The notes under the pieces: model-generated
What the model saw: the letters and a program-made list of their open reading frames with translations, nothing else
Databases searched by the model: none
Told to the model about the DNA's origin: nothing
Shown: one piece after another, positions 25,902 to 45,900 of the stretch
Layout: every line of letters starts with the position of its first letter
Numbering within the stretch: position 1 is the first letter of the stretch
Source: Chitinophagales bacterium
GTDB taxonomy: Bacteria; Bacteroidota; Bacteroidia; Chitinophagales; CAIODY01
Direction: 5' to 3'
DNA: 64,000 nt
Assembly (NCBI GenBank): GCA_026461075.1
Contig: JAPJNH010000051.1
Coordinates: forward strand, 65,816 to 129,815
Translations under genes and position numbers: made by a program

Positions 25902-28900
25902 TTAACGTACTAAAGTAACGTCACCTTTCAGATAAATTAACTTACCGCCACCGCATTCTGCAATGACATTGTAAATATAAGTTCCTAATTCTTGTTCAAC
26001 ACCGCGGAATTTACCATCCCAACCTTTACTGTTTTTATCGTTGGTTGCGAACATCAATTGTCCCCAACGGTTATAAACCTCTAAACGTACCAAACGATAG
26101 AAATCATCTGGATTAAGAACACGGAATGTACGATCTGCCTCTACATCAGAGTTTGGCGCAAAAGCATTCGGAATTCTTAATGCTTCACACATACGAATAG
26201 TCACATGCATGGTATCCATATCCATACAACCAAACGAAGCATTATAGTAAGTTAATACATAATCTTGATCTACACTTGGAGTCGCATTTGGATCCATTAA
26301 GGTTGGATTGTCCAAAGTGGCTGCAGGTGACCATAAATACGCGTTACCACCAATACTTCCGCTTCCATCCAAATGAGCTGCATTGCCAACGAAGATGGTT
26401 TGATCTGCACCCGCATCAGCAATTGGTAAAGCATGACCCGTGATATGATGAGAAGTACTATCTGTACAACCATTTGCATCTGTTACGAATACGAACACAT
26501 CTGCACCCCCTGTTACAAACAATGAATCATTCGCTGATCCATCGCTCCATAAGTAAGAAACATAATTTGGGCTTACAGCCAAACCAACTGTTTGATCCAA
26601 ACACAAATCATTTGGTCCGATAATAGTTGGCGTAGGCAATGGATTCACGTCCACATTTTGTGTTACTGGCAAACTGCTACATCCGTCTTGCGTCACTACC
26701 AAGGTTGTTGGATAATGTGCTTGTGTTGAAGTGCTATTAAAATAACGTACATTGTGCGGACCTGCTGTAGTCGCTTTATTTGGACTTCCATTATTGAAGG
26801 TCCAGTTGTATGTTACTTGACCACTGCTACTTGGATTCGTCGTTCCTGTATAACTAAAGTTAACCACTTGACCAGAACAAATAGGGTTAGGTGCATAACT
26901 GAAAGTTGCAGTAGGAATTGGGTACACCGTAATTAATACAGAGTCAGTATTAGAAGTACATCCGTTCTCTGTGATTGTCAAATAAGCAACCTCAGTTTTG
27001 ATACCAGAAGTTGTCATGTAGGTTACACTATGCGGTCCTTTAGTGGTTGCAGTCAGAGGACTACCATTAGGGAAGGCGTAACCGAATGTACATGATGCGG
27101 CATTTTGGTAAGTACTACCAGCACTTGTGATTGTTACAGGAACACCAGCACATGTTAAGGCAGGATTCGAGCTAATTTTAGCAACCGGATAAGGGTGAAT
27201 AGTTACGTTTACTGAAGCACTATCGTAACAACCATCTTGATTAACTAACAAGGTAATTTTCTTCACTAATGATATTTTCGAAGGAACTGTATTCCAAGTC
27301 ACATCATAAGTAGGCGTATTATTAATCATGTTAGCAATACCACCATTCCAACCCCAAGTGTATACAGGAATTGTAGGTGTTGGATTTGGAGCAACCCCTG
27401 TATTAATGGTTCCATTGAACGCAACAGTTAATGGAGAGCCAGTACATACCGCATTAGGTGTTGTACTCATGCTTGCCACTGGATTTGGATATATTATAAC
27501 TGAGTCAACAGTTACAATAGAAGGACAAAGGTTCGTTGGTCCAACACTTGTTTGCAACTTGATAATATACTTACCAGGCGCGTTCATTACTAGGCTTAGA
27601 TTCTTAGTAGTACCTACGACATTATTACCCTTATCCATCCACTTGTAATTAAGTCCTGGATAAGTTGCAGAAGTTCCTGTATAGGTTAATTTCAAGCTAT
27701 CGCCCACACAATGCGGACTATTACGAGCAAAATTACTTGTCAATGTTGGAATAACCACAACACTTGCAGAGTCTGGGAAGGAAGTACAACCAAAGTCATT
27801 CACCACCAAATGAGGCGTATAGATACCTCCAGCATTCCAGAATACTTGATATGGACCTTGACCAGAACCACTTAATACTTGCCCGCCATTCCAATTCCAA
27901 TTATAAGTACCTGCTGCAGTACCTGAACCTGTATAGGTTACTGTACTTGGGCTTCCCTGACAAACAGGAGAACTCATAATAAAGTCGGCACTTGGTGTAA
28001 GATTTTGAAGAATGGTAATGGTATCGGTTGCAGAGCATCCTGTACCAGATTGTGTCGCTGTAACAATTACCGAATCAGGACCAAATACTGTTACATTAGG
28101 TGTAGAACAATTACTACATCCTGAAAGTGCTCCACCATTGATCGTCGACCATGTCCAGCCGGTCATCGGAATATTATTTCCAGTTGCCCATAATGGAACA
28201 ACAGCACCTGGACAAACACTGGTATCCTTACGAACTTGTAAATTGATTGTTCCGATCACATTAACAACAACCGTATCAAACAATGGGCAATAAGAACCCA
28301 TTAACTGACATACATAAGTTGTTGTGGTAGCCGGGTTCACATTGATTGTAGCATTGGTATTATTTGGAATTATACTTGGAGGAATTGAACTCCAGAAGAA
28401 ATTGTAATTACCAACATTGATTTGAATTGGACAGCCCGTGAAGCGTGCATTCGGCAACAAATTGCTTGTACCAAAGGTGTTTGGCGTAGCCGCATTTTGC
28501 GTACAGCCGGCAATACCAGCGATATTACCCGCCCATACGACACAGTTCCCAGCTTGCGCTGTTTTTGCAACCACATCACTCGCGGAAGAAATAGCTGACC
28601 CAAAACAAATCTCTACTAACAAATCGCTACTACCATCCCAATCATATGCATTGGTAAAGGCAAATGTATTCCAACCTGCTGTAGTAGTATAATTCGTAGG
28701 ACCGTAAACCGTAGACAATCCACCAATGAAGTTAGTAGGCATTGCTAAGTTTTTATTGATACAACTTACTTTGATGGTCATATTGTAATGCGGCAAATAA
28801 CTATTCTTGGTAGTAATATTAAATGCCATTGAAGAAATCTTGTATGGCGTACCAGCTGCAATACCAAAGGCTGCTTGCAAACTAGCTGCTGTATAACGCA

Positions 28901-31900
28901 TCATCGTTCTTCCATTAGAATAATTCGCGTTGAACGGTGTTATGGTAGTTGTCAGATTATTACCTGCCCCTACAGTTACAGTTGTTGGAGCCGAAGCACA
29001 GTTATTCATTGTACTTAATCCACAAGGTACCGCGTTTACAGGTACTGGACCTGTAGCTGAAGCTGTCAAGCTAACCCCTTGGTTATTTCCACAGAACGTA
29101 GTATCCGCGCCGGCAGAAATTGTATTCTTCTGCATTTGGTAAACAGTGAAATTCTTGATCGTTTGACAACCTCCGTCATCCCCTGTAAGCGTATACGTTG
29201 TAGTTGTTAATGGAGAAACAAAAATGGAATCATTATGAGAAATAAAACCTGGAGGATTTGAGGTCCATGTCCATGTAGTTGTTGCTGTTGCTTTTCCACT
29301 ACATCCTTTAATGAATACATCTGGGCGTTCTGTGATTGTTGCTGGCAAAAATCCATTACCCGTTTGACCATAGTTAGGATCACAACCATTATAACTATCC
29401 GAATAAGCGTAAGCACATAAGTTAGCTGTAGCAGGTAAGCCTGCAGCTGCAGATATTGTAGCATTTGTAGTCTTAGCAACACGGTCATCAGAAGTCCAAC
29501 AGCTACTACCTGCATCATAACAAGTTTGAATCAAAAGGTTTGAAACTCCATCCCAAGCATACGGTGTTTGTAAAACGAAGGTGTTCATACCTGCTGTCGT
29601 ACTGTATGCAGTGGTGGTATAAACTTGCGTTAACGGAGTTGTTAAGTCCATTGCAACACCGCCTGTATAGATATCTGTATAAGGAACACATGCCATTGAA
29701 ATAGTAAACCCTGCAAATTGTCCATTTGCAGAACATGCTGGAATAGTACTTGCCTTATTTACAATATCCCATGCAACTTCAGAAATTGGTCCACCTTGGA
29801 ATCCTAAAGCTTGCAATTCAGAAGCTAAAATCAACATTTGACATTTAGATTCAGTGTAGAAACCGCGGAATGGTGTAGGTAAGTTTGCGGTAGTACCGCT
29901 GTTATTACCTGCTGCGTAAACAGAACCTCCTGCACAACTGATAGGTGATGGTCCACATACGGAAGGCGATGTCATAATGGCAATAGTATCGATCACCAAA
30001 TTACCGAATGGATCACGTAAACAGATGGTATCATTACCCATTACAAACAAAGAAGGATATTGACCTTTTACTAAAATAGGGATATCAATATTCGACCAAC
30101 AGGTAGTATCACCAGGAGGAGGTATGGCCGTAAAGCGAATATTGTGCGGCCCATTGCAATTGTACTTCAACTTGATTGGACCAGGTCCAATAAGATTTCC
30201 ACTCATTACGGTATAGCACGAGTCGAGTGTATAGAAATAATTAAAGTTAGGCTTTACTGTTCCTGTAAAATTCACAATGATCGAATCTGTCGGTCCACAT
30301 ACCGTATCTTGCGATACAAACATTGGTAATGGAGGCATCGGCTGGTTGATATGAATGGTTTTATAAACCGTATCAGATACACAACTAATATTAGATTGAA
30401 CAATTAAGGTAATCGTATAATTACCCATTTGATAATAAATATGCTGCGGATTCTGGGTAACGGTATCTATGTTAGGGTTATTAACCGTAGCATTCGGATC
30501 ACCGAAATTCCACTGCCAATGATTGATGAAAGTTCCCGCTGTTAGAGAGTAGGAAGAGTCGACAAACTGTACAATAGAACCAGCGCAGTAATTGGAAGGA
30601 TAGAAGAAATTAGCTACCGGCTTAGGTTGTGCAGTTAACAATGTATAAATAGTATCAGGACAACCAAATCCTGGGTAAGGGAATACCGCCAACGCATAAG
30701 TAGTAGGTTGAGTTGGCGCTGGATTCAATGTTAAATTCACATTGGTACCTAATATGGTAGTACAAGTTCCATCATACCAAACATAGCTTTGATAACCCGG
30801 AGGGCCATTCAAACCTGCGGTAGAAGATCCTGGACAATATCCTTGTACAATAGCAGAGATGGAACATCCTACGCCTACATCGACGTAACCATAACCCCAG
30901 TGACCACTAAAAGAACAGTCAAAAGTGGTGAATTCAAGCGCAACAGTACGTCCACTTAGACCATTCAATCCAATATTTTGTTGCGACCACGATTTATAGT
31001 GAACGGTAGGATCCAATGTAGAAGTTCCCCAACCTGGCATACTTGAACTTGCTGTATAGGCGAAAGTCGCACATGCAATGGAACTTCCTGGACCTAATAT
31101 ACTATCATAAACTTTTACAGTCACACCAGGCTGATCCGTTGCACCATGACTCGCATCCTGCAATACAGCAGCCCAGTTATAAACGATATTATAGTTGTTA
31201 TTTCCTGGCGGGATTCGAATATAATAAATAACGCGATCAGCTTGTGCTCCTACGTTATCATCCCCTACACGACAAGAGAAATTACCTCCACCAAAAACAG
31301 TAGGGCAAACTACAGGAAACAATCCATAAGGGTCTAAATTAACAGGAGCGGATGTTGGACTAGCTAATGCTGGATTCGGAAATCCAGAAGGCGTAATTTG
31401 AAAACGTGTTCCAGTAGCTGCAACGGTTGGAACAACAGCCGCCGCACCAAACGTTGGGGCTGTACCAGGATAAGTTCCTGTAAAACATTTCCAATTGGTA
31501 AAATTACCATATTCGAAATCAATATTAAGCGGACAACAAACTTGCGGTATAATACGCACGCAATAAGTTGGGCTCGAACAACCTGAAGGTGCCGTCTGAT
31601 AAACACAATAATTACCCGCATCATTGGGGCCAATACCTGTAATAGTATCTGCGTTTTGTGAACTATTCACACCATTTGTACTGTTCGCATTCCAATGAAT
31701 CGTATAGCCTGGTCCCGTTGGAGTTGCAGAGAAAATAAAGTCGCTACTATAACACGGACGCAAAGTATCTTTCACCACACCATTCAATACCATGTGCGGT
31801 ACACCTCCTACCAAGGTCGTAGACAATCCATTGAAAGATATTGTAGTTGGATATGCTGCCGGACCAGCACCTACAGAAATAATCAGTAAGGCGGTATCGC

Positions 31901-32231
31901 ACATAACAGGAACACCATTATCACATACTTTATAGGCTAAAGTATCGACACCGCAAAAGCCGCTATTAGGCGTATAAGAAATCGTTCCGTTGTTAATATT
32001 AACAGCAGTAACTAAACCATGCTTTGGCGTAATGATAACCACTGCATTCAATGTTAATGTTTGTCCGACGTCGGGATCAACGTCGTTTAAAATAACATTG
32101 GTAGTCACACCAGTATTAGCCGCAGTAGTAGCAGCATCATTTGCAGCAACCGGAGGGTTGTTTGCATATGCGCTTTGTAATGCAAAGAATGCCATTACAA
32201 AGAATACGGTTATTTTTACTATTTTTTTCAT
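25902..32231 (-). CDS. Giant T9SS type B cargo (2109 aa): cadherin-like + Ig-like + module A + PKD + 2x module B + PKD-like repeats + type B CTD
   Basis: Signal peptide MKKIVKITVFFVMAFFALQSAYA. NDVDPD cadherin-like domain. WNFGDP PKD domain. C-terminus VYNRWGQLMF...GWDGKFRG...GDVTLVR. Confidence 0.85.
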   Translation of the reverse strand: MKKIVKITVFFVMAFFALQSAYANNPPVAANDAATTAANTGVTTNVILNDVDPDVGQTLTLNAVVIITPKHGLVTAVNINNGTISYTPNSGFCGVDTLAYKVCDNGVPVMCDTALLIISVGAGPAAYPTTISFNGLSTTLVGGVPHMVLNGVVKDTLRPCYSSDFIFSATPTGPGYTIHWNANSTNGVNSSQNADTITGIGPNDAGNYCVYQTAPSGCSSPTYCVRIIPQVCCPLNIDFEYGNFTNWKCFTGTYPGTAPTFGAAAVVPTVAATGTRFQITPSGFPNPALASPTSAPVNLDPYGLFPVVCPTVFGGGNFSCRVGDDNVGAQADRVIYYIRIPPGNNNYNIVYNWAAVLQDASHGATDQPGVTVKVYDSILGPGSSIACATFAYTASSSMPGWGTSTLDPTVHYKSWSQQNIGLNGLSGRTVALEFTTFDCSFSGHWGYGYVDVGVGCSISAIVQGYCPGSSTAGLNGPPGYQSYVWYDGTCTTILGTNVNLTLNPAPTQPTTYALAVFPYPGFGCPDTIYTLLTAQPKPVANFFYPSNYCAGSIVQFVDSSYSLTAGTFINHWQWNFGDPNATVNNPNIDTVTQNPQHIYYQMGNYTITLIVQSNISCVSDTVYKTIHINQPMPPLPMFVSQDTVCGPTDSIIVNFTGTVKPNFNYFYTLDSCYTVMSGNLIGPGPIKLKYNCNGPHNIRFTAIPPPGDTTCWSNIDIPILVKGQYPSLFVMGNDTICLRDPFGNLVIDTIAIMTSPSVCGPSPISCAGGSVYAAGNNSGTTANLPTPFRGFYTESKCQMLILASELQALGFQGGPISEVAWDIVNKASTIPACSANGQFAGFTISMACVPYTDIYTGGVAMDLTTPLTQVYTTTAYSTTAGMNTFVLQTPYAWDGVSNLLIQTCYDAGSSCWTSDDRVAKTTNATISAAAGLPATANLCAYAYSDSYNGCDPNYGQTGNGFLPATITERPDVFIKGCSGKATATTTWTWTSNPPGFISHNDSIFVSPLTTTTYTLTGDDGGCQTIKNFTVYQMQKNTISAGADTTFCGNNQGVSLTASATGPVPVNAVPCGLSTMNNCASAPTTVTVGAGNNLTTTITPFNANYSNGRTMMRYTAASLQAAFGIAAGTPYKISSMAFNITTKNSYLPHYNMTIKVSCINKNLAMPTNFIGGLSTVYGPTNYTTTAGWNTFAFTNAYDWDGSSDLLVEICFGSAISSASDVVAKTAQAGNCVVWAGNIAGIAGCTQNAATPNTFGTSNLLPNARFTGCPIQINVGNYNFFWSSIPPSIIPNNTNATINVNPATTTTYVCQLMGSYCPLFDTVVVNVIGTINLQVRKDTSVCPGAVVPLWATGNNIPMTGWTWSTINGGALSGCSNCSTPNVTVFGPDSVIVTATQSGTGCSATDTITILQNLTPSADFIMSSPVCQGSPSTVTYTGSGTAAGTYNWNWNGGQVLSGSGQGPYQVFWNAGGIYTPHLVVNDFGCTSFPDSASVVVIPTLTSNFARNSPHCVGDSLKLTYTGTSATYPGLNYKWMDKGNNVVGTTKNLSLVMNAPGKYIIKLQTSVGPTNLCPSIVTVDSVIIYPNPVASMSTTPNAVCTGSPLTVAFNGTINTGVAPNPTPTIPVYTWGWNGGIANMINNTPTYDVTWNTVPSKISLVKKITLLVNQDGCYDSASVNVTIHPYPVAKISSNPALTCAGVPVTITSAGSTYQNAASCTFGYAFPNGSPLTATTKGPHSVTYMTTSGIKTEVAYLTITENGCTSNTDSVLITVYPIPTATFSYAPNPICSGQVVNFSYTGTTNPSSSGQVTYNWTFNNGSPNKATTAGPHNVRYFNSTSTQAHYPTTLVVTQDGCSSLPVTQNVDVNPLPTPTIIGPNDLCLDQTVGLAVSPNYVSYLWSDGSANDSLFVTGGADVFVFVTDANGCTDSTSHHITGHALPIADAGADQTIFVGNAAHLDGSGSIGGNAYLWSPAATLDNPTLMDPNATPSVDQDYVLTYYNASFGCMDMDTMHVTIRMCEALRIPNAFAPNSDVEADRTFRVLNPDDFYRLVRLEVYNRWGQLMFATNDKNSKGWDGKFRGVEQELGTYIYNVIAECGGGKLIYLKGDVTLVR

Positions 32232-32258: not shown

Positions 32259-35200
32259 TTAACGTAACAAAGTAACACTACCCTCTTTTCTAACTATCTG
32301 TCCACCTTCACATTCAGCCTCTAGGTAGAAAGTATAGGCTCCTACTTCTTGATCAACTCCGTTAAACTTACCATCCCAACCTTGATCCATTTTGTTTTTA
32401 GAGCTATACACTTTTTGTCCCCAACGGTTAAACACTTCAAATCTCTTAAGACTAGTCAATTGCATTGCATTCGCGATAAAGAAGTGATCGTTCTTACCAT
32501 CACCATTTGGAGAGAATGCTTTCGGGATAAACACATTCGAACAGTTCGTAACGATAACAAGCATCGTGTCATATCCTATACAACCGTTCTGATCTGTTGC
32601 TTCCACAATATAGAATGTCGAAACAGCTGGTGTTGCTTGCGTATTAAGAATTGTTGCATTTGCTACAGTGGCAGCAGGTGTCCATGCGTAAATATAATTT
32701 GGCGTAGTAGCTCCACCGATATTGGCTGTATTACCAAGCACAATCATCGTATCAGGACCAGCATCTGGAGCTGGAGGAACGAGAACTGTAACAATAGCAG
32801 TACCTACTCCAGTACAACCGTTTGCAAGAGTACCGATAACAGAATATGAAGTCGTACTTGCTGGCCATACTTTGATAGCTGGTAAATTCGAATTCACATT
32901 ATTAATCCAATTATAACTATCCGCACCACTTGCCCATAGATATGCTGGACGACCCGGACAAATACTTGTATCACTATGAATAATCACAGTAGGAACAGGC
33001 AATATTGTAATCGGACTTGTAACAGGCGTAGATACGCAACCATTCTGAGATACAGTCAAGGTAACATTATACGTTCCAGGATTATTCCAGATAACACCTA
33101 TCGGACCTGCACCTGAACCATACAATTGTGATGTCATATTGCTGAATGTCCATGCATGGTTAGCTCCTGGCACTACCCCTCCTCCGATATGTACGAAGCG
33201 AGCTGTGTCGAAAGCACATGTTGGAGACGTTACGGTAAAGTTCGCTGTCGGTGTTGGCACTACTTGAATCGTTTGTGTATTCGTAGCAGAAGTACATCCA
33301 TTCTCCGTAACTACTAATGAAACCGAAGCATTGAATATTGAATTAGAGTTGTTAACCCATGTTACACCATGAGGTCCAATACCTGACAATTGAACAGGAT
33401 TAGCATTACCTGTTGTATTCCAAACAAAACCAGCTGTGCTTGTAGCATTACCTGTATAGGTAACCGCAACTTGGTTTCCAGAACATATACTTGAGGCCAA
33501 ACTGAAATTATTCGTTGGAGTTAAGGTAACATTCACAGGAACGACTGTTGGTGCAGAAGTACAACCATTAGAGGTAACCGTTAAGCTTACATTCTTTATA
33601 CCTGCTGTTGACCAGTTCACAGTATATGGTCCAGCTCCTGGTCCACCACTCGGTACACCGCCATCCCAAGCCCAGATATAACTTGCGCCAGCACCCATAT
33701 TACCTGTATAGGTAATTGGCGTTGCCTGACCTGTACATGATTTTACAGGAGCAACAAAAGAGGAAGTAGGTGTTAAGTTTACAACTAAAGGAACGGTTGT
33801 TGTACTTGTACAGTTTCCATTGGTTACCGTTAGGGTCAAGTTCTTTGTACCTGCTGAACTCCACATCGCTTGATAAGGACCAGCGCCGCTTCCTGAGGCA
33901 ACGACAGCACCTTGTAAATTCCAATTGTAGTTATAGGCTGCATTTGCAGTTCCTGTGTAGGAAATTATTGCATTTGAGCCGGTACAAACTGGGTTAGGAA
34001 TAATAGAAAATCCAGAAGTCGGTGTTTGATTAACAATCACAGGAATTGTGATGGAATCCAAACATGATCCAGAATTGACAATTAATTTCACATTTTTAGT
34101 ACCCGCTGTAGCCCACGTGATAGTGTAAGGTCCAAAACTGGATCCACTTACTACTGTACCACCATTCCAATTCCAAGTGGCCGTTGAACCTACAGGATTA
34201 ACTCCTGTAAAGGTAACCGTTGCATTTGCACCAGAACATACTGGATTAGGATTCACAGTGAAGTTAGCTGTAGGAACAGGAGTCACAGATATCACAATGT
34301 TATCCGTAACATTACAACCAGAGTACCCACTTGCTGAAACTTGATAGGTAGTGGTTATTGAGGGAGAAACTGCAGGATTCATCTGAAACGAAGTAAATCC
34401 AGCAGGAGTTGAAGTCCAGTTATAATTGAAAGGACCAGTACCAGTTGTAGTAGGGTTTAACGTATAAATTGAACCTTTACAAATAGTGGCATTATTACCA
34501 GCATTAATAGAAGTTGTATTATCAATGTAAATAGTTTTAGTCGTGGTTGTTTGACAACCATTACCATCATCAACCGTTACAGAATAAGTAGTATTAACAG
34601 TAGGTGAAGCCACTGGATTATTCACAGAGGCAGAGGATAAAGTTGCAGTCGGCGTCCAAACATAAGTTGCTGTATTCAAGTTTGAAATACAAGTAATCAA
34701 CGTAACTGAAGGACGATTGAACGAAGTAGTGAAGATAGTCCCTGTAGTAAGGTTACAACCACTTGAACCAACACCTGATTGAAGTGCATAGACACAAGAG
34801 CTGAATGCAGTAGCTGTTTGTGCAACAACATCATCCATATTGGCAGAAGAATTGTCGAAGCAGAATTCTAGTACTAAATTACTTGTTCCATCCCAGTTAT
34901 AAGGTGTCTGGAAATTAAAGGTATTGGTACCATTTACTGTATTGTAAATGGCGTTAGTATACACCAAGCTTAAACCTCCGATAAAGGATGCAGCACTATA
35001 TTGAGAGGATGCAGTGCAACCCATAGAAATCTTAAAATTACGGATAGGGTTTGTGCTACTCTTGCTCGTTACATTGAAACTTATTCCAGACAATTGACCA
35101 GCACTAAAGCCTGCATTTACGAGCTCTGATGCACGAATAATCATCTGCATTCTGCCATCAGAATAAGATTGAGAGAACGGACCAGGATAAGTTGAAATAT

Positions 35201-36893
35201 TTAATCCACCTGCACCAATTATACTATTATTGGGTACGCCATTACAAGCTACATTGGTTGGTCCGCATGTGGTTGGAATAACAGAAACCGATAATTGGGT
35301 ATTTGCATTCGGACAAATCGTGTCATCCGTTACATTAATATGCGCATCAGGAGCCACACCAACAATATTTACCACCACGCTATCTGTAAAGCTACAGCCT
35401 AGGACAGGATTGGTAATGGTATAATAGTAAGTAGTGGTCGCTGTTGGGGTTACTATAGCAAACTGTTGCGTAGTATCTACAATGCCGTTTGCAGGCCAAT
35501 TCAATCCATTATTGGTAGTCCATGCTATAGAATAGTTTGGATTTGGCGGCGAAACAGGATTCATGGTAGTACTCGTATTCAAACATATACTTTGATCAGG
35601 ACCAGCATTCGGATATACCGGAGGTTGAGCCACGTTCAAAATGGTGAATAAGGCCGTATCGGATACACAGGATATACTAGATGTTACGATCAACTGTACT
35701 TGGAAGAAGCCTGTGTCAGAGAAGATATGAACTGGATTTTGTTGTGTACTATAATTATTTGCACCAGTGTTTGGGTCACCGAAATCCCAATGCCAAGAGT
35801 TAATATAAGCAAATGGGAAGTTAGTATAAGAAGAGTCTGTAAATTGTACCGGACTATTCGCACAAATTTGCTGGTTAGTTGTGAAAAAAGCTGTTGGCAA
35901 TGGCGCTACTTTTAAGGTATCGACCAATGTATCATTACAGGAAGCACCACCTGGAGGTGTTACTACGCAAGCATAAGGTGTATTAGCTGCCGGAGCAGTA
36001 ATTACTACTGAATCGAAGTTCCCAATATTGGTCCAACCCGGTAATTGATACCAAGAGTAATTTGAAAAGCCTGGAGGGCCATATAAGGTAGCAGAACTTT
36101 GGCCAGGACAATAACCTGTGCTGATACGGAAAGGATTACAACCACCAGGAATATCTACATAAGAATATCCATAGTGACCTCCGAATGAACAGTCTCCTGT
36201 TGCGAATTCCAAGATAACTAGGTGACCATTTAAAGCGGCTAAGTTTACTGAAACAGGTATCCAATTAGAACAATATACCTGATTATTACTTGGTGAAACG
36301 AACCAGAACGGCGGCATGTTAGTACTGCTCGATGGCGAAGGGATATTGTAAGAAGGACAAGGTACTACAACTGGAGTTGTATAAGGTGCTGTAATTGGAC
36401 CCGCATCGTATACGGTAAATACAACACGCGGTTGATCTGTTGCTGCGTGACCACCAGAGTTTAGAACGGCTGCATAACGATAAATCAAGGTAGAGTTATT
36501 CGTACTGACAGGAAACTGAATACGAACTTTTTCAGATTCAGAACCTGTGTTTGAATTCCCTAATTTGAGTGAATGTAGGTTAACAATCGGCGGTTGAACA
36601 GGGCATACACAAGGGAATCCACAAGAAGCGTCATTACCCCAAGTAGCATCTGTTACTTCGATACGGCCAGGAATTTGAAAATTAACACCTTGAAATGAAC
36701 ATGCGTTGATTGGGCAACAACCTAAACCTGTACAGCCGTTATTGATAAAAGACTGCCACTGAGACATGTCGCCTAATTCAAACCCGATATTTGGCGGACA
36801 CACTTGTGAGAAGGCTTTTGGAGCTTCCAAAAGCATGAGCAATACTAAAATTCTTAAGCTCAGTTTAAAAATACTTTTCATTTGCAAGTTCAT
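32259..36893 (-). CDS. Giant T9SS type B cargo (1544 aa): module A + PKD + module B + 5 tandem PKD-like repeats + type B CTD
   Basis: Signal peptide (an alternative start at M5, 36881, is possible). WDFGDP PKD domain. C-terminus FSPNGDGKNDHF...VFNRWGQKVY...GWDGKFNG...GSVTLLR. Confidence 0.85.
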   Translation of the reverse strand: MNLQMKSIFKLSLRILVLLMLLEAPKAFSQVCPPNIGFELGDMSQWQSFINNGCTGLGCCPINACSFQGVNFQIPGRIEVTDATWGNDASCGFPCVCPVQPPIVNLHSLKLGNSNTGSESEKVRIQFPVSTNNSTLIYRYAAVLNSGGHAATDQPRVVFTVYDAGPITAPYTTPVVVPCPSYNIPSPSSSTNMPPFWFVSPSNNQVYCSNWIPVSVNLAALNGHLVILEFATGDCSFGGHYGYSYVDIPGGCNPFRISTGYCPGQSSATLYGPPGFSNYSWYQLPGWTNIGNFDSVVITAPAANTPYACVVTPPGGASCNDTLVDTLKVAPLPTAFFTTNQQICANSPVQFTDSSYTNFPFAYINSWHWDFGDPNTGANNYSTQQNPVHIFSDTGFFQVQLIVTSSISCVSDTALFTILNVAQPPVYPNAGPDQSICLNTSTTMNPVSPPNPNYSIAWTTNNGLNWPANGIVDTTQQFAIVTPTATTTYYYTITNPVLGCSFTDSVVVNIVGVAPDAHINVTDDTICPNANTQLSVSVIPTTCGPTNVACNGVPNNSIIGAGGLNISTYPGPFSQSYSDGRMQMIIRASELVNAGFSAGQLSGISFNVTSKSSTNPIRNFKISMGCTASSQYSAASFIGGLSLVYTNAIYNTVNGTNTFNFQTPYNWDGTSNLVLEFCFDNSSANMDDVVAQTATAFSSCVYALQSGVGSSGCNLTTGTIFTTSFNRPSVTLITCISNLNTATYVWTPTATLSSASVNNPVASPTVNTTYSVTVDDGNGCQTTTTKTIYIDNTTSINAGNNATICKGSIYTLNPTTTGTGPFNYNWTSTPAGFTSFQMNPAVSPSITTTYQVSASGYSGCNVTDNIVISVTPVPTANFTVNPNPVCSGANATVTFTGVNPVGSTATWNWNGGTVVSGSSFGPYTITWATAGTKNVKLIVNSGSCLDSITIPVIVNQTPTSGFSIIPNPVCTGSNAIISYTGTANAAYNYNWNLQGAVVASGSGAGPYQAMWSSAGTKNLTLTVTNGNCTSTTTVPLVVNLTPTSSFVAPVKSCTGQATPITYTGNMGAGASYIWAWDGGVPSGGPGAGPYTVNWSTAGIKNVSLTVTSNGCTSAPTVVPVNVTLTPTNNFSLASSICSGNQVAVTYTGNATSTAGFVWNTTGNANPVQLSGIGPHGVTWVNNSNSIFNASVSLVVTENGCTSATNTQTIQVVPTPTANFTVTSPTCAFDTARFVHIGGGVVPGANHAWTFSNMTSQLYGSGAGPIGVIWNNPGTYNVTLTVSQNGCVSTPVTSPITILPVPTVIIHSDTSICPGRPAYLWASGADSYNWINNVNSNLPAIKVWPASTTSYSVIGTLANGCTGVGTAIVTVLVPPAPDAGPDTMIVLGNTANIGGATTPNYIYAWTPAATVANATILNTQATPAVSTFYIVEATDQNGCIGYDTMLVIVTNCSNVFIPKAFSPNGDGKNDHFFIANAMQLTSLKRFEVFNRWGQKVYSSKNKMDQGWDGKFNGVDQEVGAYTFYLEAECEGGQIVRKEGSVTLLR
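32997..34283 (-). repeat. Five tandem ~85-aa non-canonical PKD-like repeats (protein-level, diverged)
   Basis: Unit P.PT..F.....VC.G.....YTG....Y.WNW.GG...GSG.GPY...W...G.K...L.V...GC.S......V (aa 871-1299). Confidence 0.6.
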
Positions 36894-36942: not shown

Positions 36943-37320
36943 TTAGCGCTTATAGTTTACCAAAACCCAATTGTTATCTGCCATTACTTTTTCCAATTCA
37001 GGACTAGTTAATAAATCAACGGTATCATCAAAAACAAGAACTACGCGACGAGAGTTAGGAACCTCTGTAGCTAATGGCATCATAGATTGAAAGCCTTTAA
37101 TTTTCTGAAAATACTCATTTACTTTGGTTAGGTTCAACATGTCAGTTGCGGTCAACGTTTCAAACACAACAATACGACGATGCGCAACAGGATTATAGGA
37201 TTGGTCAATCACCTGAATAGCAACACGCTTAGTAGTTGCAGCAGCTTTTTGTGTCGTTTGTGCCATGCTCAAATTTGCAAGACCTAACAAAACCATAACG
37301 GAGAAAAGGATACGTTTCAT
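36943..37320 (-). CDS. Small secreted hypothetical protein nested between the paralogous giants
   Basis: 125 aa. Signal peptide MKRILFSVMVLLGLANLSMAQ. Gaps of only 27 and 49 nt to the flanking genes. No recognisable family. Confidence 0.6.
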   Translation of the reverse strand: MKRILFSVMVLLGLANLSMAQTTQKAAATTKRVAIQVIDQSYNPVAHRRIVVFETLTATDMLNLTKVNEYFQKIKGFQSMMPLATEVPNSRRVVLVFDDTVDLLTSPELEKVMADNNWVLVNYKR

Positions 37321-37347: not shown

Positions 37348-39897
37348 TTATTTAATTAGAGTAACATTACCTGTTTTAGTTTTTACTTGCCCACCTTTAT
37401 CTACGACTTGTGCTTTATAGATATAGACGCCAATATCTTGTATTTGCCCTTTGTAAGAGCCATCCCAACCTTTCGCACGTATATCTGTTGTAGCGTAAAC
37501 TAACTCTCCCCAACGGTTGTAGACTTCAAAATAATCAAGCGAAACAAAATTTCTATTGAGAAGGAAGAAGTAGTCATTTTTGCCATCACCGTTAGGTGAG
37601 AAGGCACTTGGAATCACTAATTCCGGACATTCAATTGGATTGACAAAAACAGAATCTTTAGAACGACAGCCAATTGCATTAGCCGTATTAACATATACCA
37701 TCACCGGCTGTGTCACTGCTGCAACGGCAGTGGAGCATGTAACGCAAGCAGCAATCGATCCTGCAGACGGATCCATCGTCCACCAAAACTGAGTGATGTC
37801 AGATGCAAGGGAATTGAATGCTATTATTTCTGCCTGGTTCATACACGGTTGAATTGTGTCAGGCAAATCTAATGAATAAGGCTCCCCTACTCTTACTACA
37901 ATATTTTCAGTTAATACGCACCCACTATAGGTAATTCCTGTAACGGTATACGTTGTTGTTTGCATGGCAGAGCACACAACTTGAGGTCCTGTTGAGGAGC
38001 TTAAATCATTAGACGGATTCCAGCTAAAGCTAAATCCTCCGCTCGGTGTTGGGCCATCCATAGATGCCATTAAGGTGCAAGAAGATCCTTTACAAATCAC
38101 TGTATCTAAGCTTGCGAAAAGATGGTTTCGGTCATCCACATTAACAAGGAAAGTCTGAGAGGACGAGCAACCGTTGTCATTAATTGTGAGACTATATGCA
38201 GTTGTCACGATTGGATTTACCGTAGGATTTGGAACGGATGCAGAGCTGATATGCGTGTTCGGTGTCCAAGTATAATTCGCAGATGCGGGAATTACATCTA
38301 GGCCAAGATTGGTAATACTTAGGAAGTCGTTTTCTCCGGCACAAATGGTATCATCCCCATTAATTTGGAAGTTAGGACGTACTCCTAAAACAGTAACTTT
38401 TACGGAGTCAGTTAAATTACATCCAGAAGGATCTGTTAAGATAATATGGTAAACCGTGGTAACTGATGGAGATGCTTTCGGATTTGGAATAGAGTCGTTG
38501 CTTAAGCCTGCAGACGGCACCCAATGATATTGATAAGGGCCAAAAGCGGCATTAGCTGTTGCCTGTAATTGTGTGCTATCGTATTTACAAATACTAACAT
38601 TTAGTCCTGCATCCAAATTAATGGGAGGTGGAGGTACAATCGTAATCGATAAACTTGTAGTATCCGAAACACAGGAGATATCGGACTCAACGATAAGTGC
38701 AACAGTATAGGTACCTGGGTTATAAAAGACGTGGGTAGGATTTTGAGAAGTCGCAATATTATTAGCACCAGAGGAAGGATCTCCAAAATCCCAATGCCAT
38801 TGGACGATAATAGAGCCAGGGATATGCGTTTGACTAGAATCGTAGAAATTGATTAATCCACCTGCACAGGCGGTGGTTTGGAATCCAAACATGGCAGTAG
38901 GACGAGGCTGTACATGAATGGTATCATACAAAGTATCAGCGCAAACAACCAATCCTGGAGGGATTACAACAAGGGAATAGATAATATTAGAATCTGGTGA
39001 TAAAATCAACAATGAATCTGCAGCGCCGCTAGCAATGTATGGCGCACCAGTCCCTGCGGTGTCCCAGATATAAGTATTGAAACCCGGAGGACCATAAAGG
39101 GTTGCAGAGGTTGACCCAGGGCAATAGCCGGTTACGACAGAGAATGCGCCGCAGTTTAAATCAACATAGGCATAGCCAAAATGCCCACCAAGTGAACAAT
39201 CCGCTGTAGCAAATTCAATCGTCACTAAATGTCCATTCAAAGTACCTAAGTTAACTGACACTGGAATCCAACGCGAACAAAAAACACTACTATTCGTTGT
39301 AGAGACGAACCAGCCTTGCGTTAAACTTGCAGAAGAGGAAGGCGTCTGAAATAGAATAGAAGAACAAGTTACTTTTACCGGAGTGGCATAAGGATTATTC
39401 ATTGGGCCATTATCCCAAACATTAAAAACCAAGAAGGGCTGATTGGTTATAGCATGCTGTGGATTCTCCATAACTGCCGCATAGCGATAAATTAAGGATG
39501 CATTAGAGCTGTTTACAGCAAAGGTGGTACGTACCATTTCAGCCTCACCGCCCGTATTATCGTTCCCGAGGCGTAATGACTTCGTTCCGTAACCAATATA
39601 AGGACAAACAACTGGTAAAAGACTATATGGATCAAGTGTTCCATTAAATGGAGGCGTATACGTCAAGCCAGCCCCATTGGGGGTAACGGTATGTCTGCCA
39701 GCAACCTGACCAGGCACTGTAATACTCGGAGTACCAGAGTTATTAGTTCCTGTGAAACATTGCCAACCTGTGGTATTACCTTGCTCGAAACCAATATTTG
39801 GTAGACATTGCGCGAACAAACTGCTGTGAATACCAAGACTGAAAAGCCCTAGTAAAAGCAGTTTGACGCTAAAAAGCTTTAAAAATTGTTGTTTCAT
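37348..39897 (-). CDS. T9SS type B cargo (849 aa from the preferred start): module A + PKD + Ig-like repeats + type B CTD
   Basis: Start placed at MKQQFLKLFSVKLLLLGLFSLGIHSSLFAQ (39897; the track gives 39969). WDFGDP PKD domain. C-terminus FSPNGDGKNDYF...VYNRWGELVY...GWDGSYKG...GNVTLIK. Confidence 0.85.
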   Translation of the reverse strand: MKQQFLKLFSVKLLLLGLFSLGIHSSLFAQCLPNIGFEQGNTTGWQCFTGTNNSGTPSITVPGQVAGRHTVTPNGAGLTYTPPFNGTLDPYSLLPVVCPYIGYGTKSLRLGNDNTGGEAEMVRTTFAVNSSNASLIYRYAAVMENPQHAITNQPFLVFNVWDNGPMNNPYATPVKVTCSSILFQTPSSSASLTQGWFVSTTNSSVFCSRWIPVSVNLGTLNGHLVTIEFATADCSLGGHFGYAYVDLNCGAFSVVTGYCPGSTSATLYGPPGFNTYIWDTAGTGAPYIASGAADSLLILSPDSNIIYSLVVIPPGLVVCADTLYDTIHVQPRPTAMFGFQTTACAGGLINFYDSSQTHIPGSIIVQWHWDFGDPSSGANNIATSQNPTHVFYNPGTYTVALIVESDISCVSDTTSLSITIVPPPPINLDAGLNVSICKYDSTQLQATANAAFGPYQYHWVPSAGLSNDSIPNPKASPSVTTVYHIILTDPSGCNLTDSVKVTVLGVRPNFQINGDDTICAGENDFLSITNLGLDVIPASANYTWTPNTHISSASVPNPTVNPIVTTAYSLTINDNGCSSSQTFLVNVDDRNHLFASLDTVICKGSSCTLMASMDGPTPSGGFSFSWNPSNDLSSSTGPQVVCSAMQTTTYTVTGITYSGCVLTENIVVRVGEPYSLDLPDTIQPCMNQAEIIAFNSLASDITQFWWTMDPSAGSIAACVTCSTAVAAVTQPVMVYVNTANAIGCRSKDSVFVNPIECPELVIPSAFSPNGDGKNDYFFLLNRNFVSLDYFEVYNRWGELVYATTDIRAKGWDGSYKGQIQDIGVYIYKAQVVDKGGQVKTKTGNVTLIK

Positions 39898-40027
39898 TAA
39901 GGAGTAGTTTTCAGTTTTAAATAAAACCACACTCGCGTTAAGGGGCGCAAGTATAGTTTTCCTTCGCAATATAGTGAAAACTTCCTATAAAAGCAACATT
40001 TGGCTTAAAATCAGATAGTACAAAAGA

Positions 40028-41917: not shown

Positions 41918-42928
41918 CTAGAACTTAGGGCAAAACATCTTTTTTCCACGACTATAAACCGTTGGTTTAGATTTAGGACATTTAATAACGTATTGCAAGG
42001 TTAATTCTGGTCCGCCTTTATAGTTAGAAAACACATGAAGTGGAGATACGTTTACGTCATAAGACAAGCCGACTGCAAGATTAAGGATATCATAACGGAA
42101 GTAGAAGTTCAAGGCGTCAGCACCTGGACGGGTAAAGCGCATTCCTGTACCGAAATAGACTGCAGTTTCATACGTAAGGTTATCGTCAATCAACACTTTA
42201 CCAAGGGCTGACACGTTCAATTCTCTGGCACCTTTCTGCGTACTGTACTGAATCATAGGGATAACAGTGAACATATCGGCGAACTGGATAAATGCCGTTC
42301 CATGATATTGAAACTTGGTACCAAGCAAATCTGTGTAGTGTGCAAAAGATTGATTCGGACGTGTTAAGTGTGTAAAGCTAAAACCGGTTTGATAAGATAG
42401 CCAATTATACGGTTGATGATAAAATAATACCCCCGTACCAAAATCAGTAAAACTTACATTATTAGTTAATGTCACCACTTCAAACGGATTCTCCAATTTT
42501 AAATTGGAGAGATTCACCTTACGTTGCCAAGATCCAAATTGCAAACCTGCTGCAATGGTCATTGGATGCTTTTTATCAAGAATATGGCAATAGCCTAAGC
42601 TCATTCCAAAAGCACTAGTGCCATATTGTGCGTCACCACCAATATCATTAAAGAAATTAACGCCAAGTCCAACAAAATTCCCTTTCAATTGACCTTGCAA
42701 AATTTTTGCATCCATTGCGCCAGACATCGTATTAAACCCATTACTTCCCATAATGGAAGACCATTGATTTCTATATCCAGCATTCACACGCATACAGCCA
42801 TTGAATTGCCCAACCAAAGCCGGGTTCAAGGTCTGAGGCGACATATAATATTGTGTAAAATGATAATCCTGCGCAAATGCATTCAGGCTAATCATACAAC
42901 AAAGTATTACTATAATTTTTTTCATCAT
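41918..42928 (-). CDS. PorP/SprF-family type IX secretion system outer-membrane protein
   Basis: 336 aa with signal peptide. Family hallmark AQDYHFTQYYMSPQTLNPALVG at the mature N-terminus. Beta-barrel pattern, C-terminal Phe. Starts only 10 nt after the upstream type-B cargo gene. Confidence 0.85.
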   Translation of the reverse strand: MMKKIIVILCCMISLNAFAQDYHFTQYYMSPQTLNPALVGQFNGCMRVNAGYRNQWSSIMGSNGFNTMSGAMDAKILQGQLKGNFVGLGVNFFNDIGGDAQYGTSAFGMSLGYCHILDKKHPMTIAAGLQFGSWQRKVNLSNLKLENPFEVVTLTNNVSFTDFGTGVLFYHQPYNWLSYQTGFSFTHLTRPNQSFAHYTDLLGTKFQYHGTAFIQFADMFTVIPMIQYSTQKGARELNVSALGKVLIDDNLTYETAVYFGTGMRFTRPGADALNFYFRYDILNLAVGLSYDVNVSPLHVFSNYKGGPELTLQYVIKCPKSKPTVYSRGKKMFCPKF

Positions 42929-42938
42929 TAACCTTTGT

Positions 42939-45900
42939 TTAGCGTATTAGAGTAAGGTTTCCATTAAGCACTTTATATTCTCCATCGCCCAAGTCCTGAT
43001 AATTGATAATATAAAGATAGACCCCTGAATTCTGTTCTTTACCTCTGTGATAGCCATCCCATCCTTGGGTATAATCTTCTGAGTGAAAAACCTCTTCACC
43101 CCAACGATTGAAAATACGCATACTAAACTGATTGATTGGTTGATTTGCTGTGATGCGGAAGACATCATTCAAACCATTAGCATCTGGCGTGAAGCCGTTT
43201 GGAACCGTTATCACCGCATTTTGATAAATCATGGTAATATAAACGGTATCAGGTCCTGGACAATTACTTTCATCCTTAACTGTGTAATAAATATTATTCA
43301 ATGCACTTGAAATAACGGTATTACCGGTATCCTGATTTAATGCTATGTTCGGCATCCATGTGATAGTGCCTGTACCAATTGCATTTAAGGTAATATCACT
43401 ACCTGCAACTAAAGTGCTGTTCGGTGTTAGAATACGCGGAGCTGGTAAAACCGTAATCGTTTTAATCATTGTATTGCTCTTTCCATATTTATTAGAATCT
43501 ACCAAGGTAATGGTAAAGGTTCCAGGATATTGGTAGCAAATATTTTTAGGGTTTATTTGCGTAGAGAACAAACTATCTGCACCAGTGAATGTCCAAAGGC
43601 TAGTAAACGGCGCTTCTGTACTTATATTGGTGATATCAATACAAGTTGATGCACAGGTTGTGGTAGGCATATAAAAATCTGCTGTTGGAGGCAAACAAGA
43701 CAATACTGTAATGTATTTCGTCATGCTATTTGATCCATATGCATTTTGTACCGTCAATTTGATACTATACGTACCTGGTGTTCCATACTGTACTGTAGGA
43801 CTAGATTGATTGGAGATACCAGGGCTAGCACCAGAAAGTGCCCAGTAGTAAATAAGTGGTCCATGTAGTGAAGAGTCCGTTAAGACAATTGGTGTGTTCA
43901 TACAAACTGTATCAGCAGGGATACCAAAATTGGCAACAGGCAAAGAACAGTCTGTAATCGTAATTTGATTGGTAACAGCTGAACTTGCGCCGCAAACGTT
44001 CCACGCAATCATCTGTATAGTGTAGGTCCCTGCAGTTGGGTAGATATGCGTTGGAGTTTGTAAAGTACTTGTATCGGTACCTGAACCAGCTTGACCGAAA
44101 GTCCACTGCCAAGCATTTGGTGAACCGGTAGTATTATCATAAAGTGTGATTGGCGTATTATTACAGTAAGGAGGATTCAAGCTAAATTGGGCAGTTGGGA
44201 TCGTTTTAACATTTATCGTTTTCGTAGCGACATTAGATCCACAAAGATTACTAGCGATTAATTGAATAATTTGATTCCCTGCCGCATTAAACTGGATTGC
44301 CCCTGGATTTTGAGTGGTAGAGGTCGCTGGTGAAGAATTGGCAAATGACCAGGCCCAGTTTGTAGGAGTATTAGAACTTCCGTCTGTGATATTGAGCGTA
44401 TTCCCTACGCAGACACTGTTTGCGCTAGCATTAATGGCCGCTAATGGAGCGCCAGGAAAGATTACAAGGGTCTTTGTAAAAACACCACTATTACCAAGGG
44501 TATTTCCTGCAACTAGCGAAATGGTAACGGTTGCAGCAGTGGTAAGAGAAGAGTTAAACGTGATAATGCCTGGGTTTTGCAAATTAGAACTAGGAATAGA
44601 CACGGTGATTCCTCCTGTATTGGTACTGTTAAAATTCCAGCTCCATGTAGTTGGCCCGTTAATAGAGAGGTCCGTAACCGTAATTGTCGAACCCGAACAA
44701 ATGGTATCATTCGGACTAAGACTGAATGAAGCAACAGGCGTTAAGCAGAACTGAGTCGTCACGTTGACGGCAGCTGAAGCTAAGCTAGTACAGCCTCCAA
44801 CCGTATTCGTAACGGTGTAATTACCTGTTTGAGGAGCATTTACACTCGGGATAACCGGGTTTTGTTGCGTTGATGTGAATGCATTAGGGCCGGTCCATGA
44901 CCAAGTTCCTGACGGAGAACCGTTAGGATTAGCTGTTAGGTTACACGACTGACCTGTACATACCGGAGCATTACTCGAGGCGATTGGCGTTTGCGGGATC
45001 GGGTTTACATCCACCAAAATACAAGTTGAGGCGCTATTACAACCTACTGTTTGATATTGATAAACGCAGTACTGACCAGAATCGACTTGCGTAACAGCCG
45101 CTGCCGCAATAGAGATTGAAGCACCCGTACCAATTAATCCAGAAGGGCCTGTCCATACCATGGTCATTCCTGCTAATCCTGTTGCGCTAATATTGATACC
45201 GCTTCCTAAACAAACGGGATTACTGGCTGCAGTTACGCCACTTGGTGCTGCAGGAGATGTTCCTACTTGCACAAATACCCAGGCTGTATCACATAATGTC
45301 GGGCTTCCATTATCACAAATTTGATATTGAAAGGAATCTTGTCCGCAATAGTTTGCAGTGGAAGTATAGGTAAGTCCGCCATTAGAACCAATACCAGTAA
45401 TGGTTCCATGCTGCGGTTGCGTAACAATTGTTGCGTTCAAAAAGATATTATCTGTCGGATCTGGGTCGTAGTCATTCACCATGACATTCGTAGTGGTAGC
45501 GGTTCCAGAAGCAGCATTTAGATTGTCGTTGGCAGCAACAGGCTGATTATTTAAAACAGTATAAAACAAATTAATTGAATCAACTGCAAAAGAAGGGTCA
45601 GTGCCTAAGGCGTCATTATCGTTGTCCCAAAGAAATCCTATTCTAAAGTTGGCCAAGTTGTTATAAAGGGATGGGAGAGCCATTGAGAAGCGGGTCCACT
45701 GCCCTTGCGGCGCGCAGGTTAAGGGTGTTTTAGCTAGTAAAACATTATTCCATGTGGTACCATCGAAGAGTTGTAAAGTAGCGTTATCATCAGAACCTTC
45801 CCCATTTAAGATATAGTTAAAGGAAATAACAATACTAGATTTACCCGCGCAGTTAATGATTGGAGATTGAGCGCGGTCGTGTGTTTCAGAGAATGAAGAT

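Follow-up and report, generated by a model that had tools for sequence, protein, structure and literature searches.

Type B cargo proteins of type IX secretion systems (T9SS) bind PorP/SprF-like outer-membrane proteins, which hold the cargo on the cell surface (PMC9143113), and carriers of the PorP/SprF type are coupled to the moving gliding/T9SS track (PMC12635249, PMC12618676). The CHU_C domain is an anchor of fibrillar adhesins that is restricted to Bacteroidetes (PMC8286594), and the fibrillar-adhesin surveys that defined new adhesive domains covered Firmicutes and Actinobacteria only (PMC9210967). Here we analyze a 64-kb window of a freshwater Chitinophagales bacterium (the whole stretch of DNA studied, positions 65,816 to 129,815 of contig JAPJNH010000051.1), in which three large proteins ending in CHU_C share a domain of about 225 residues, termed Module A. 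We lean, with modest confidence, towards reading Module A as the distal ligand-binding head of T9SS fibrillar adhesins that carries a probable metal-centred site. The jelly-roll fold and the tip-stalk-anchor logic are already known; the sequence family is new.

Module A is encoded by three consecutive large open reading frames (ORFs) on the minus strand. A sequence-only reading of the window had placed its copies at aa 31-252, 54-273 and 230-456 of three paralogues, and all three are found there; the plus-strand frames at these coordinates are riddled with stop codons. Residues are numbered throughout as in the 1544-aa protein, and the signal peptides listed below were read from the sequence, with a slash marking the cleavage site.

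37348..39969, minus strand: ORF of 873 aa (ORF list)
32259..36893, minus strand: ORF of the 1544-aa protein (ORF list)
25902..32231, minus strand: ORF of the 2109-aa protein (ORF list)
36138..36806, minus strand: Module A copy 1, predicted jelly-roll head, aa 30-252 of the 1544-aa protein
39151..39810, minus strand: Module A copy 2, aa 54-273 of the 873-aa ORF (aa 30-249 counting from the ATG at 39897)
30864..31544, minus strand: Module A copy 3, aa 230-456 of the 2109-aa protein
36807..36893, minus strand: signal peptide of the 1544-aa protein, aa 1-29, ...PKAFS/QVCPPN
39811..39897, minus strand: probable ATG start and signal peptide of the 873-aa ORF, MKQQFLKLFSVKLLLLGLFSLGIHSSLFA/QC
35889..36128, minus strand: small Cys-bracketed domain of the 1544-aa protein, approximately aa 256-335, starting GYCPG..SATLYGPPGF.NY.W
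35652..35897, minus strand: PKD domain (stalk) of the 1544-aa protein, aa 333-414 (Pfam)
32271..32528, minus strand: CHU_C/T9SS type B sorting domain of the 1544-aa protein, aa 1456-1541 (Pfam, NCBIfam)
37360..37614, minus strand: CHU_C/T9SS type B sorting domain of the 873-aa ORF, aa 786-870 (Pfam, NCBIfam)
25911..26177, minus strand: CHU_C/T9SS type B sorting domain of the 2109-aa protein, aa 2019-2107 (Pfam, NCBIfam)

Full-length, composition-adjusted pairwise alignments of the three copies (BLASTP) give 46% identity (E=1e-64), 35% (E=2e-37) and 34% (E=3e-33). A search of the six-frame translation with a three-sequence profile revealed no fourth copy in the window. Most of the strings that the sequence-only reading had quoted as shared are present, but several fit only the two closer paralogues and not the copy of the 2109-aa protein, which instead reads CPLNIDFE, CRVGDDNVG, IVYNWAAV and FSGHWGY. 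Moreover, the fifth of these strings, GYCPG..SA.L.GPPG(F/Y)..Y.W, had been counted as part of the module and has to be moved out of it. It lies at aa 260-282, 281-303 and 464-486, starting and ending 8-30 residues past the module end, in a region of low confidence of the structural model described below (pLDDT 57-62). Since Ig_7 domains begin about 60 aa past the jelly-roll in homologues, and since the family consensus after the module reads C...L.AP.GF..Y.W...GC, the fifth motif appears to open a small domain of its own, bracketed by Cys, which is probably Ig-like and the first unit of the stalk.

The sequence-only reading could not assign Module A to a family, and neither can the databases. 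Pfam-A and NCBIfam profiles match nothing on the module in the three window proteins, and nothing above cut-off in 16 diverse domain-only sequences (E≤10) or in 79 homologues (E≤1); Pfam annotation computed beforehand for 89 homologues leaves the region of the module empty in every case. The closest echoes all lie below threshold. The choice-of-anchor J profile (NF038128) reaches at best 18.8 bits (E=0.0014) against a cut-off of 30, in 4/79 members, over profile positions 108-158 of 162, which correspond to the last ~50 residues of the module. InhA-like MAM (PF20773) stays below its gathering score (best E=0.057 in 4/79 members; E=0.13 in 1/16), and the hidden Markov models (HMMs) of carbohydrate-binding modules (CBMs) are likewise sub-threshold (CBM_35, E=0.0014 in 1/79; CBM_6, E=0.0043 in 1/79; CBM_4_9, E=0.1 in 2/79). 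Profile searches of all PDB sequences returned only noise (phycobilisome linker, Shiga toxin B; E>0.05). Within the scope of Pfam-A, NCBIfam and the literature searched, no description was found of the sequence family, of its size, of its nearly exclusive N-terminal position in T9SS proteins or of its invariant His-Cys-His-Tyr site.

The window proteins are compositionally biased and repetitive, and a word-indexed search with a single module, which is limited in sensitivity, found nothing. On these grounds the similarity might be put down to chance or to the composition of surface proteins rich in Ser/Thr/Asn/Gly, or to no more than a recent local triplication. We give this explanation virtually no credence. 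The pairwise E-values cited above are already adjusted for composition, and an exhaustive HMMER search of 1.84 billion representatives recovered 3,772 matches at E≤1e-3, 2,681 at E≤1e-10 and 469 at E≤1e-30, each match being a cluster representative at 50% identity. A scan of one genome per species confirmed at least 569 loci across Bacteroidota genomes, and the family yields both a confident model and a coherent covariation contact map. The best 79 of these at least 569 loci are mostly labelled Chitinophagales (Chitinophagaceae, Flavipsychrobacter, Ferruginibacter, Sediminibacterium, Segetibacter, Foetidibacter, Nemorincola, Chitinophaga), Sphingobacteriales (Pedobacter, Mucilaginibacter), Flavobacteriales, or simply Bacteroidota/Bacteroidetes. 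Four loci (L022, L030, L056 and L066) are on contigs of metagenome-assembled genomes (MAGs) labelled Azovibrio, Bifidobacterium or Janthinobacterium, which are most likely mis-binned Bacteroidota contigs.

We then examined where the module lies in its proteins. It had been noted that in two paralogues it directly follows the signal peptide, and both the sequences at the junction (AFS/QVCPPN and LFA/QCLPN) and the statistics of the family bear this out. Gln is found 4-7 residues ahead of the invariant Asn in 161/173 members with an intact N-terminus, typically in the context ...A/Q-x(0-3)-C-P-P-N-I-D-F-E. Such a context agrees with the Bacteroidota 'Q-rule' for substrates of signal peptidase I, which Bochtler et al. 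reportedly described in 2018, and the Gln at +1 of the mature 1544-aa protein fits it as well. The Gln-cleavage context implies that the mature protein begins essentially at Module A. Among the domains of the top 150 matches the module starts at a median residue of 25, and at or before residue 45 in 114/148. The mechanically listed 873-aa ORF opens with TTG, and the ATG at codon 25 (window position 39897) is most likely its true start: the ORF is probably 849 aa long, since this ATG gives a canonical signal peptide, ending ...SLFA/QC and followed by LPN, and a length near that of homologue P0003 (843 aa, Module A at aa 32-273). In the 2109-aa protein copy 3 is internal: ahead of it lie a Big_9/cadherin-like domain and some 120 residues more. 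Some homologues have two copies, such as P0007 (1501 aa) and P0011 (1373 aa). The copies of P0007 are at residues 15-235 and 597-821, so that the module is not strictly terminal, and both lack C179 yet retain C235.

The C-terminal ends are equally uniform. All three window proteins end in a CHU_C/TIGR04131 type B sorting domain (PF13585, E=3e-17, 1.4e-14 and 8.6e-10), and the TIGR04131 score exceeds its cut-off in each. With a signal peptide and this domain, the combination that defines T9SS type B cargo, they are predicted to be such cargo. All three also contain PKD domains, and the 2109-aa protein adds the N-terminal Big_9/cadherin-like domain. CHU_C is present in 131/238 collected homologues and in 61/90 ORFs of the genome loci; a small subfamily has Por_Secre_tail (type A) in its place. 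Between Module A and the CHU_C, or rarely Por_Secre_tail, domain, homologues carry Ig_7, PKD, SprB repeats and Big_2. The minimal member consists of the module, about 130 aa and CHU_C (487 aa), and stand-alone members of about 267 aa are found. Monzon and Bateman define a fibrillar adhesin by a stalk of repeated Ig-like domains, an anchor to the cell and an adhesive domain. Of these elements, stalk (PKD, Big_9, cadherin-like; Ig_7 in homologues) and anchor (CHU_C) are seen, and Module A would supply the adhesive part. M36/M6i metallopeptidase matches of NCBIfam in four homologues were considered as a link to peptidases and rejected, as they are caused by the type A C-terminal domains (CTDs) only.

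In the 79 genome loci the commonest neighbour is a PorP/SprF-like gene immediately downstream of the module gene (10/79), tandem paralogues occur in 9/79, and no conserved enzyme, transporter or substrate-utilisation neighbour was detected.

The fold was predicted with AlphaFold2 (AF2). A model built from the three paralogues only had a mean predicted local distance difference test (pLDDT) score of 50 and was discarded for one built from a 16-sequence alignment, which is all-beta, with 13 strands over residues 47-247 (pLDDT 83.9; predicted template modelling score, pTM, 0.84). Foldseek searches of the PDB with this model gave 42 matches at E≤1e-3, whose top ranks are mainly CBMs, MAM domains and Eph receptor ligand-binding domains. 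The CBM matches comprise CBM61, CBM16, CBM27, CBM11, CBM22, CBM4, CBM28, CBM35 and a T9SS porphyran-binding CBM; the others include LAST-MAM, the MAM domain of RPTPmu, meprin, Eph ligand-binding domains and the gingipain K2 adhesin domain. As judged from the model, Module A therefore belongs at the fold level to the MAM/CBM jelly-roll superfamily. The suspicion that its opening N.GFE.G...W recalls carbohydrate-binding jelly-rolls is borne out at this level, and the covariation contacts 39-247, 42-246 and 32-252 agree with the paired N- and C-terminal strands of such a fold.

Conservation was scored first in 150 diverse domains and then in a set of 241. Six key residues of copy 1 are invariant wherever aligned: N35 (224/224), H149 (239/239), W211 (234/234), C235, H240 and Y243 (232/232 each). 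The other key residues, C32, E39, W46, D88, G112, Q154, P155, C179, D234, Y245, D247 and C252, are conserved in at least 94%, with values of 94-99.6% over 230-239 aligned members for Q154, P155, D234, Y245 and D247. The H...DQP and DCS.GGH.GY.YVD strings had been suspected to form a metal or ligand site, and loss of their His, Asp and Cys positions in a wider alignment had been named beforehand as the outcome that would speak against it. No such loss occurred: the residues are kept, and covariation places the loops that carry them in contact.

The four cysteines differ in their behaviour. C32 and C252 tend to vanish together. C235, on the other hand, is kept when C179, C32 and C252 are all absent; it is the sole cysteine of the domain in homologue P0218 and is left unpaired in P0198 after C32 and C252 have paired. 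Because it is sole or unpaired in some members, C235 seems to be conserved for more than a disulfide. E39 and D247 (94-95% conserved) are also lost together, being replaced by S/T with V/I in seven sequences, with two exceptions. Joint loss is what a common site would produce, for instance the structural Ca2+ site of CBMs, whose acidic or amide ligands come from the first and last strands.

Covariation was analyzed by mean-field direct coupling analysis (DCA) of 305 non-identical domains (effective number of sequences, Meff, 269) over 238 columns; the ranks given here are out of 27,261 pairs. The top-ranked pairs are sensible hairpin and strand partners. C32-C252 ranks 9 (z 7.1), and the pairs between the conserved loops follow closely: 153-236 (rank 10, z 7.0), 153-237 (rank 31, z 5.1), 112-234 (rank 34, z 5.0) and 112-179 (rank 47, z 4.5). 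The top 150 also hold 150-237, 179-234, 146-178, 89/90-114 and 90-241. Strand S12 (224-233) is antiparallel with both S5 (120-128) and S7 (156-166), with eight couplings each. By these registers, three conserved loops should leave one pole of the sandwich and touch each other: the one after LGN (111-113), at 113-119; the one with H149...Q154-P155, at 146-155; and the one with D234-C235...H240, at 234-241. The last strand runs from the loop pole to D247, where it meets E39 (couplings 39-247 and 42-246) and the C32-C252 clamp. The His/Cys/His/Tyr site would thus be on the pole that faces away from the stalk, with the Ca-like site and the disulfide proximal to the stalk.

This layout bears on a second explanation, in which Module A is a MAM-like protein-protein head for homophilic or heterophilic contacts, acting in the aggregation of cells or in docking to another surface protein, whose invariant residues are purely structural (a buried Zn/His-Cys cluster and disulfides). 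Its fold and the weak sequence echoes to MAM and choice-of-anchor J are in line with this, as is the N-/C-terminal Cys clamp, which is also seen in MAM/discoidin-type domains. Moreover, the several paralogues per genome, often in tandem, could form interacting sets, and a small secreted ORF is conserved between tandem paralogues. The MAM HMMs, however, remain sub-threshold (best E=0.057), and covariation puts the invariant loops opposite the stalk, which would suit an exposed site better than a buried structural one. We therefore regard this explanation as quite unlikely.

What, then, might the invariant residues do? A metal-centred site is the most economical answer: His149, Cys235 and His240 never vary, C235 behaves like a free thiol, and covariation puts their loops in contact. 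The MIDAS motif of VWA adhesin domains, in which the metal ligands are invariant and the targets differ, offers a useful analogy. Cys235, His240 and His149, together with Asp234, Tyr243 and Gln154, could alternatively be the catalytic or redox centre of a surface-displayed enzyme. This might be a hydrolase or transferase of the Cys-His type, an oxidase that depends on copper or a jelly-roll lyase with a polymer as its substrate, and the stalk would keep it at a distance from the cell. H149, C235, H240 and Y243 are absolutely invariant in 232-239 sequences that share only ~35-40% identity, C235 is the only cysteine in some members, the invariant loops touch, and the T9SS is known to export many enzymes (PMC10202324). 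However, none of the 50 Foldseek matches that were listed carries the annotation of a jelly-roll hydrolase, lyase or cupredoxin: the list consists of modules of the CBM, MAM, Eph and adhesin kinds and of tailspikes and multidomain enzymes aligned over an unspecified region. Pfam and NCBIfam contain no known catalytic motif that matches, and conserved enzyme or substrate-utilisation neighbours are missing from the 79 loci. Finally, a tip domain on a long Ig/PKD stalk, a type B CTD and tandem paralogues make up the architecture of an adhesin (PMC8286594). An enzyme is thus a rather unlikely alternative. The H...C-x4-H spacing presumably recalls the ligand loops of type-1 copper proteins, which we take as a lead only: such sites combine a Greek-key cupredoxin fold with a His...Cys-xn-His-xm-Met loop, whereas the family has H149...C235-x4-H240 but no conserved Met, and no cupredoxin is among the 50 listed matches.

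A bolder version, to which we would assign a small probability, is that the unpaired Cys235 with His149, His240, Tyr243, Gln154 and Asp234 forms a new reactive centre at the outward tip of mobile T9SS adhesins, be it a copper/redox site or a nucleophilic thiol for covalent capture. The latter may by analogy parallel in purpose the thioester domains of Gram-positive adhesins. We also considered the mechanism that links SprF to the track via a disulfide with GldK (PMC12635249) as the reason for C235 and rejected it, as it concerns the periplasmic tail of the carrier and not the head of the cargo.

Several observations weigh against the reading of Module A as an adhesin head with a metal site. 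The clustering of the invariant residues rests on covariation of ~270 effective sequences, in which phylogenetic artefacts are possible, and the 112-234 and 112-179 couplings hang on a handful of variant sequences (rank ~800 by mutual information with average product correction, MI-APC). C179, which is 98% conserved, might simply form a disulfide with C235 in most members. With identity as low as ~35%, His/Cys/His/Tyr residues this strictly invariant would be more usual in a catalytic or cofactor site than in an ordinary CBM ligand site. The fold matches are weak (template modelling, TM, scores of 0.3-0.37 normalised to the query, ~10% identity). Finally, none of the three Module A genes of the window is immediately followed by a PorP/SprF gene.

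As an adhesin head, Module A may work as follows. The Sec signal peptide would be cut just before Gln, so that the mature protein starts 1-4 residues ahead of C32. The next ~225 residues are predicted to fold as a CBM/MAM-like jelly-roll, the chain of Ig-like, PKD and cadherin-like domains would make the stalk, and the C-terminal CHU_C (type B) domain would direct T9SS export and anchoring to an outer-membrane carrier of the PorP/SprF type. The stalk-proximal pole of the head would be held by the C32-C252 clamp and by a site formed by E39/D247 (plus N35), as for the structural Ca2+ of CBMs. At the outward pole the loops LGN(111-113), H149-x4-Q154-P155 and D234-C235-x4-H240 would form one conserved site together with C179, Y243 and W211. 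This would most likely be a metal centre of His149, Cys235 and His240, possibly with Asp234 or Cys179, which holds Zn or Cu and binds, or helps to bind, the target. A jelly-roll at the extreme mature N-terminus with an invariant site on its distal pole is what fits the tip of an adhesive fibril.

The window as a whole is a segment of a Bacteroidota chromosome rich in genes for T9SS cargo with different heads. Besides the three paralogues it encodes:

13124..16549, minus strand: protein of 1141 aa with DUF7948, beta-propeller repeats, PKD and CHU_C
22049..25801, minus strand: protein of 1250 aa with a lamin-tail domain, 7 Calx-beta domains and a type A tail
42939..46241, minus strand: protein of 1100 aa with an unannotated N-terminal region of ~220 aa, Big_9, PKD and CHU_C
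41918..42928, minus strand: PorP/SprF-family outer-membrane protein gene (window protein scan)

The PorP/SprF gene is ~2 kb upstream of the three Module A paralogues and just downstream of the gene for the 1100-aa CHU_C protein, so that within the window it follows a CHU_C gene other than the Module A paralogues. This order is the same as that of sprB and sprF. The PorP/SprF protein has two cysteines in its C-terminal tail (...KCPKSKPTVYSRGKKMFCPKF), and the tail recalls the C-tail of SprF with its twin cysteines, which forms a disulfide with GldK of the gliding track (PMC12635249).

An ORF of 125 aa (36943..37320, minus strand) separates the 873-aa paralogue from the 1544-aa one; it has a signal peptide (MKRILFSVMVLLGLANLSMA/Q...) and no Pfam match. 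Similar small secreted ORFs adjoin or separate module genes in ~6 genome loci. The nearest public relative of Module A (95% identity) is from a freshwater Chitinophagales MAG, whose locus L001 has the gene order of the window: ORFs of 852 aa, 126 aa and 1544 aa. Its copy of this small gene, again between the paralogues, is at 3484..3864. An exact-match look-up of the 1544-aa protein gave no record, and an Rfam scan of the window found nothing.

A second module of ~200 aa is shared between the paralogues. The 1544-aa protein has one copy (aa ~520-720; approximately 34700..35330, minus strand) and the 2109-aa protein has two (aa ~735-960 and ~1045-1250; approximately 29350..30030 and 28480..29100, minus strand). 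It shows the pattern CGP...C.G...P(F)...YS.GR.QM.I.ASEL...G...G.IS...F...K.S...F.I.M.C...Y..G.NTF.F..PY.WDG.SNL..E.C, and has no match in Pfam or NCBIfam.

Soil and freshwater Bacteroidota encode many giant T9SS surface proteins whose functional ends are unannotated. Module A is one large and coherent family of such ends, with at least 3,700 clusters at 50% identity and often several tandem copies per genome, which now has defined boundaries, a confidently predicted fold and a small set of invariant positions. A Pfam or NCBIfam entry would improve the annotation of thousands of proteins called 'hypothetical' or 'gliding motility-associated C-terminal domain'. Should the His-Cys-His site bind a metal or react covalently, it would represent a new adhesion chemistry for gliding bacteria. 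If the reactive centre were real, metal-dependent or covalent chemistry, and not ordinary lectin binding, would be the means by which many environmental Bacteroidota hold on to surfaces or prey polymers. A plain structural zinc in a lectin-like head, on the other hand, would make Module A a useful but ordinary new domain family.

How does Module A compare with known systems? The jelly-rolls of CBMs (CBM61, 2xom; CBM16, 2zey; CBM27; CBM11; CBM22; CBM4; CBM35/6; the porphyran CBM, 8xmz) have, like the model of Module A, a beta-sandwich in which an opening N-x-(G/D)-F-E-x-G-x4-W strand pairs with a closing Y-x-Y-V-D strand. The acidic pair E39/D247 appears to take the position in which CBMs hold a structural Ca2+, and Module A would be, like CBMs, a non-catalytic appendage of secreted multidomain proteins, T9SS cargo included. 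However, identity is only ~10%, TM-scores are 0.3-0.37 when normalised to the query and do not exceed 0.6 for the target, no CBM HMM scores above threshold, and Module A is ~80 residues larger, with long insertions. To our knowledge, its invariant His-Cys-His-Tyr cluster has no counterpart in these CBM families.

MAM and bacterial MAM-like domains (2c9a, 7uab, 8a28; PF20773; NF038128) share the fold class and the N-/C-terminal cysteine clamp, with starts of the C-x-F-E...W type and ends of the G-Y-x-Y-(V/I)-D...C type. They, too, occupy the ends of surface proteins whose C-terminal anchors are interchangeable, and their HMMs echo over the last ~50 residues of Module A. The scores, however, remain under the cut-offs, and the H..QP and DC..GGH motifs are outside all these matches.

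Fibrillar adhesins share with the Module A proteins the tip-stalk-anchor logic, with CHU_C or Por_Secre_tail as the anchor (PMC8286594). Their tips, as well as the 'cleaved adhesin' domains K1-K3 of gingipain/HagA (3km5), are jelly-roll binding modules on T9SS surface proteins, as Module A is proposed to be. No sequence relationship between the gingipain domains and Module A was detected (Foldseek E-value 6.7e-4), and the former are internal or C-terminal in proteins with type A CTDs, whereas Module A is N-terminal in proteins with mostly type B CTDs.

Finally, the window proteins differ from the SprB-type gliding adhesins of Flavobacterium johnsoniae, which are carried by SprF, in having stalks of the PKD/Ig_7 type, and are presumably much shorter than SprB; a role in gliding is only a possibility. 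Like these adhesins, however, they are large and repetitive, end in a type B CTD and have a PorP/SprF-family gene nearby, and they likely ride the same kind of outer-membrane shuttle as SprB (PMC9143113, PMC12635249, PMC12618676).

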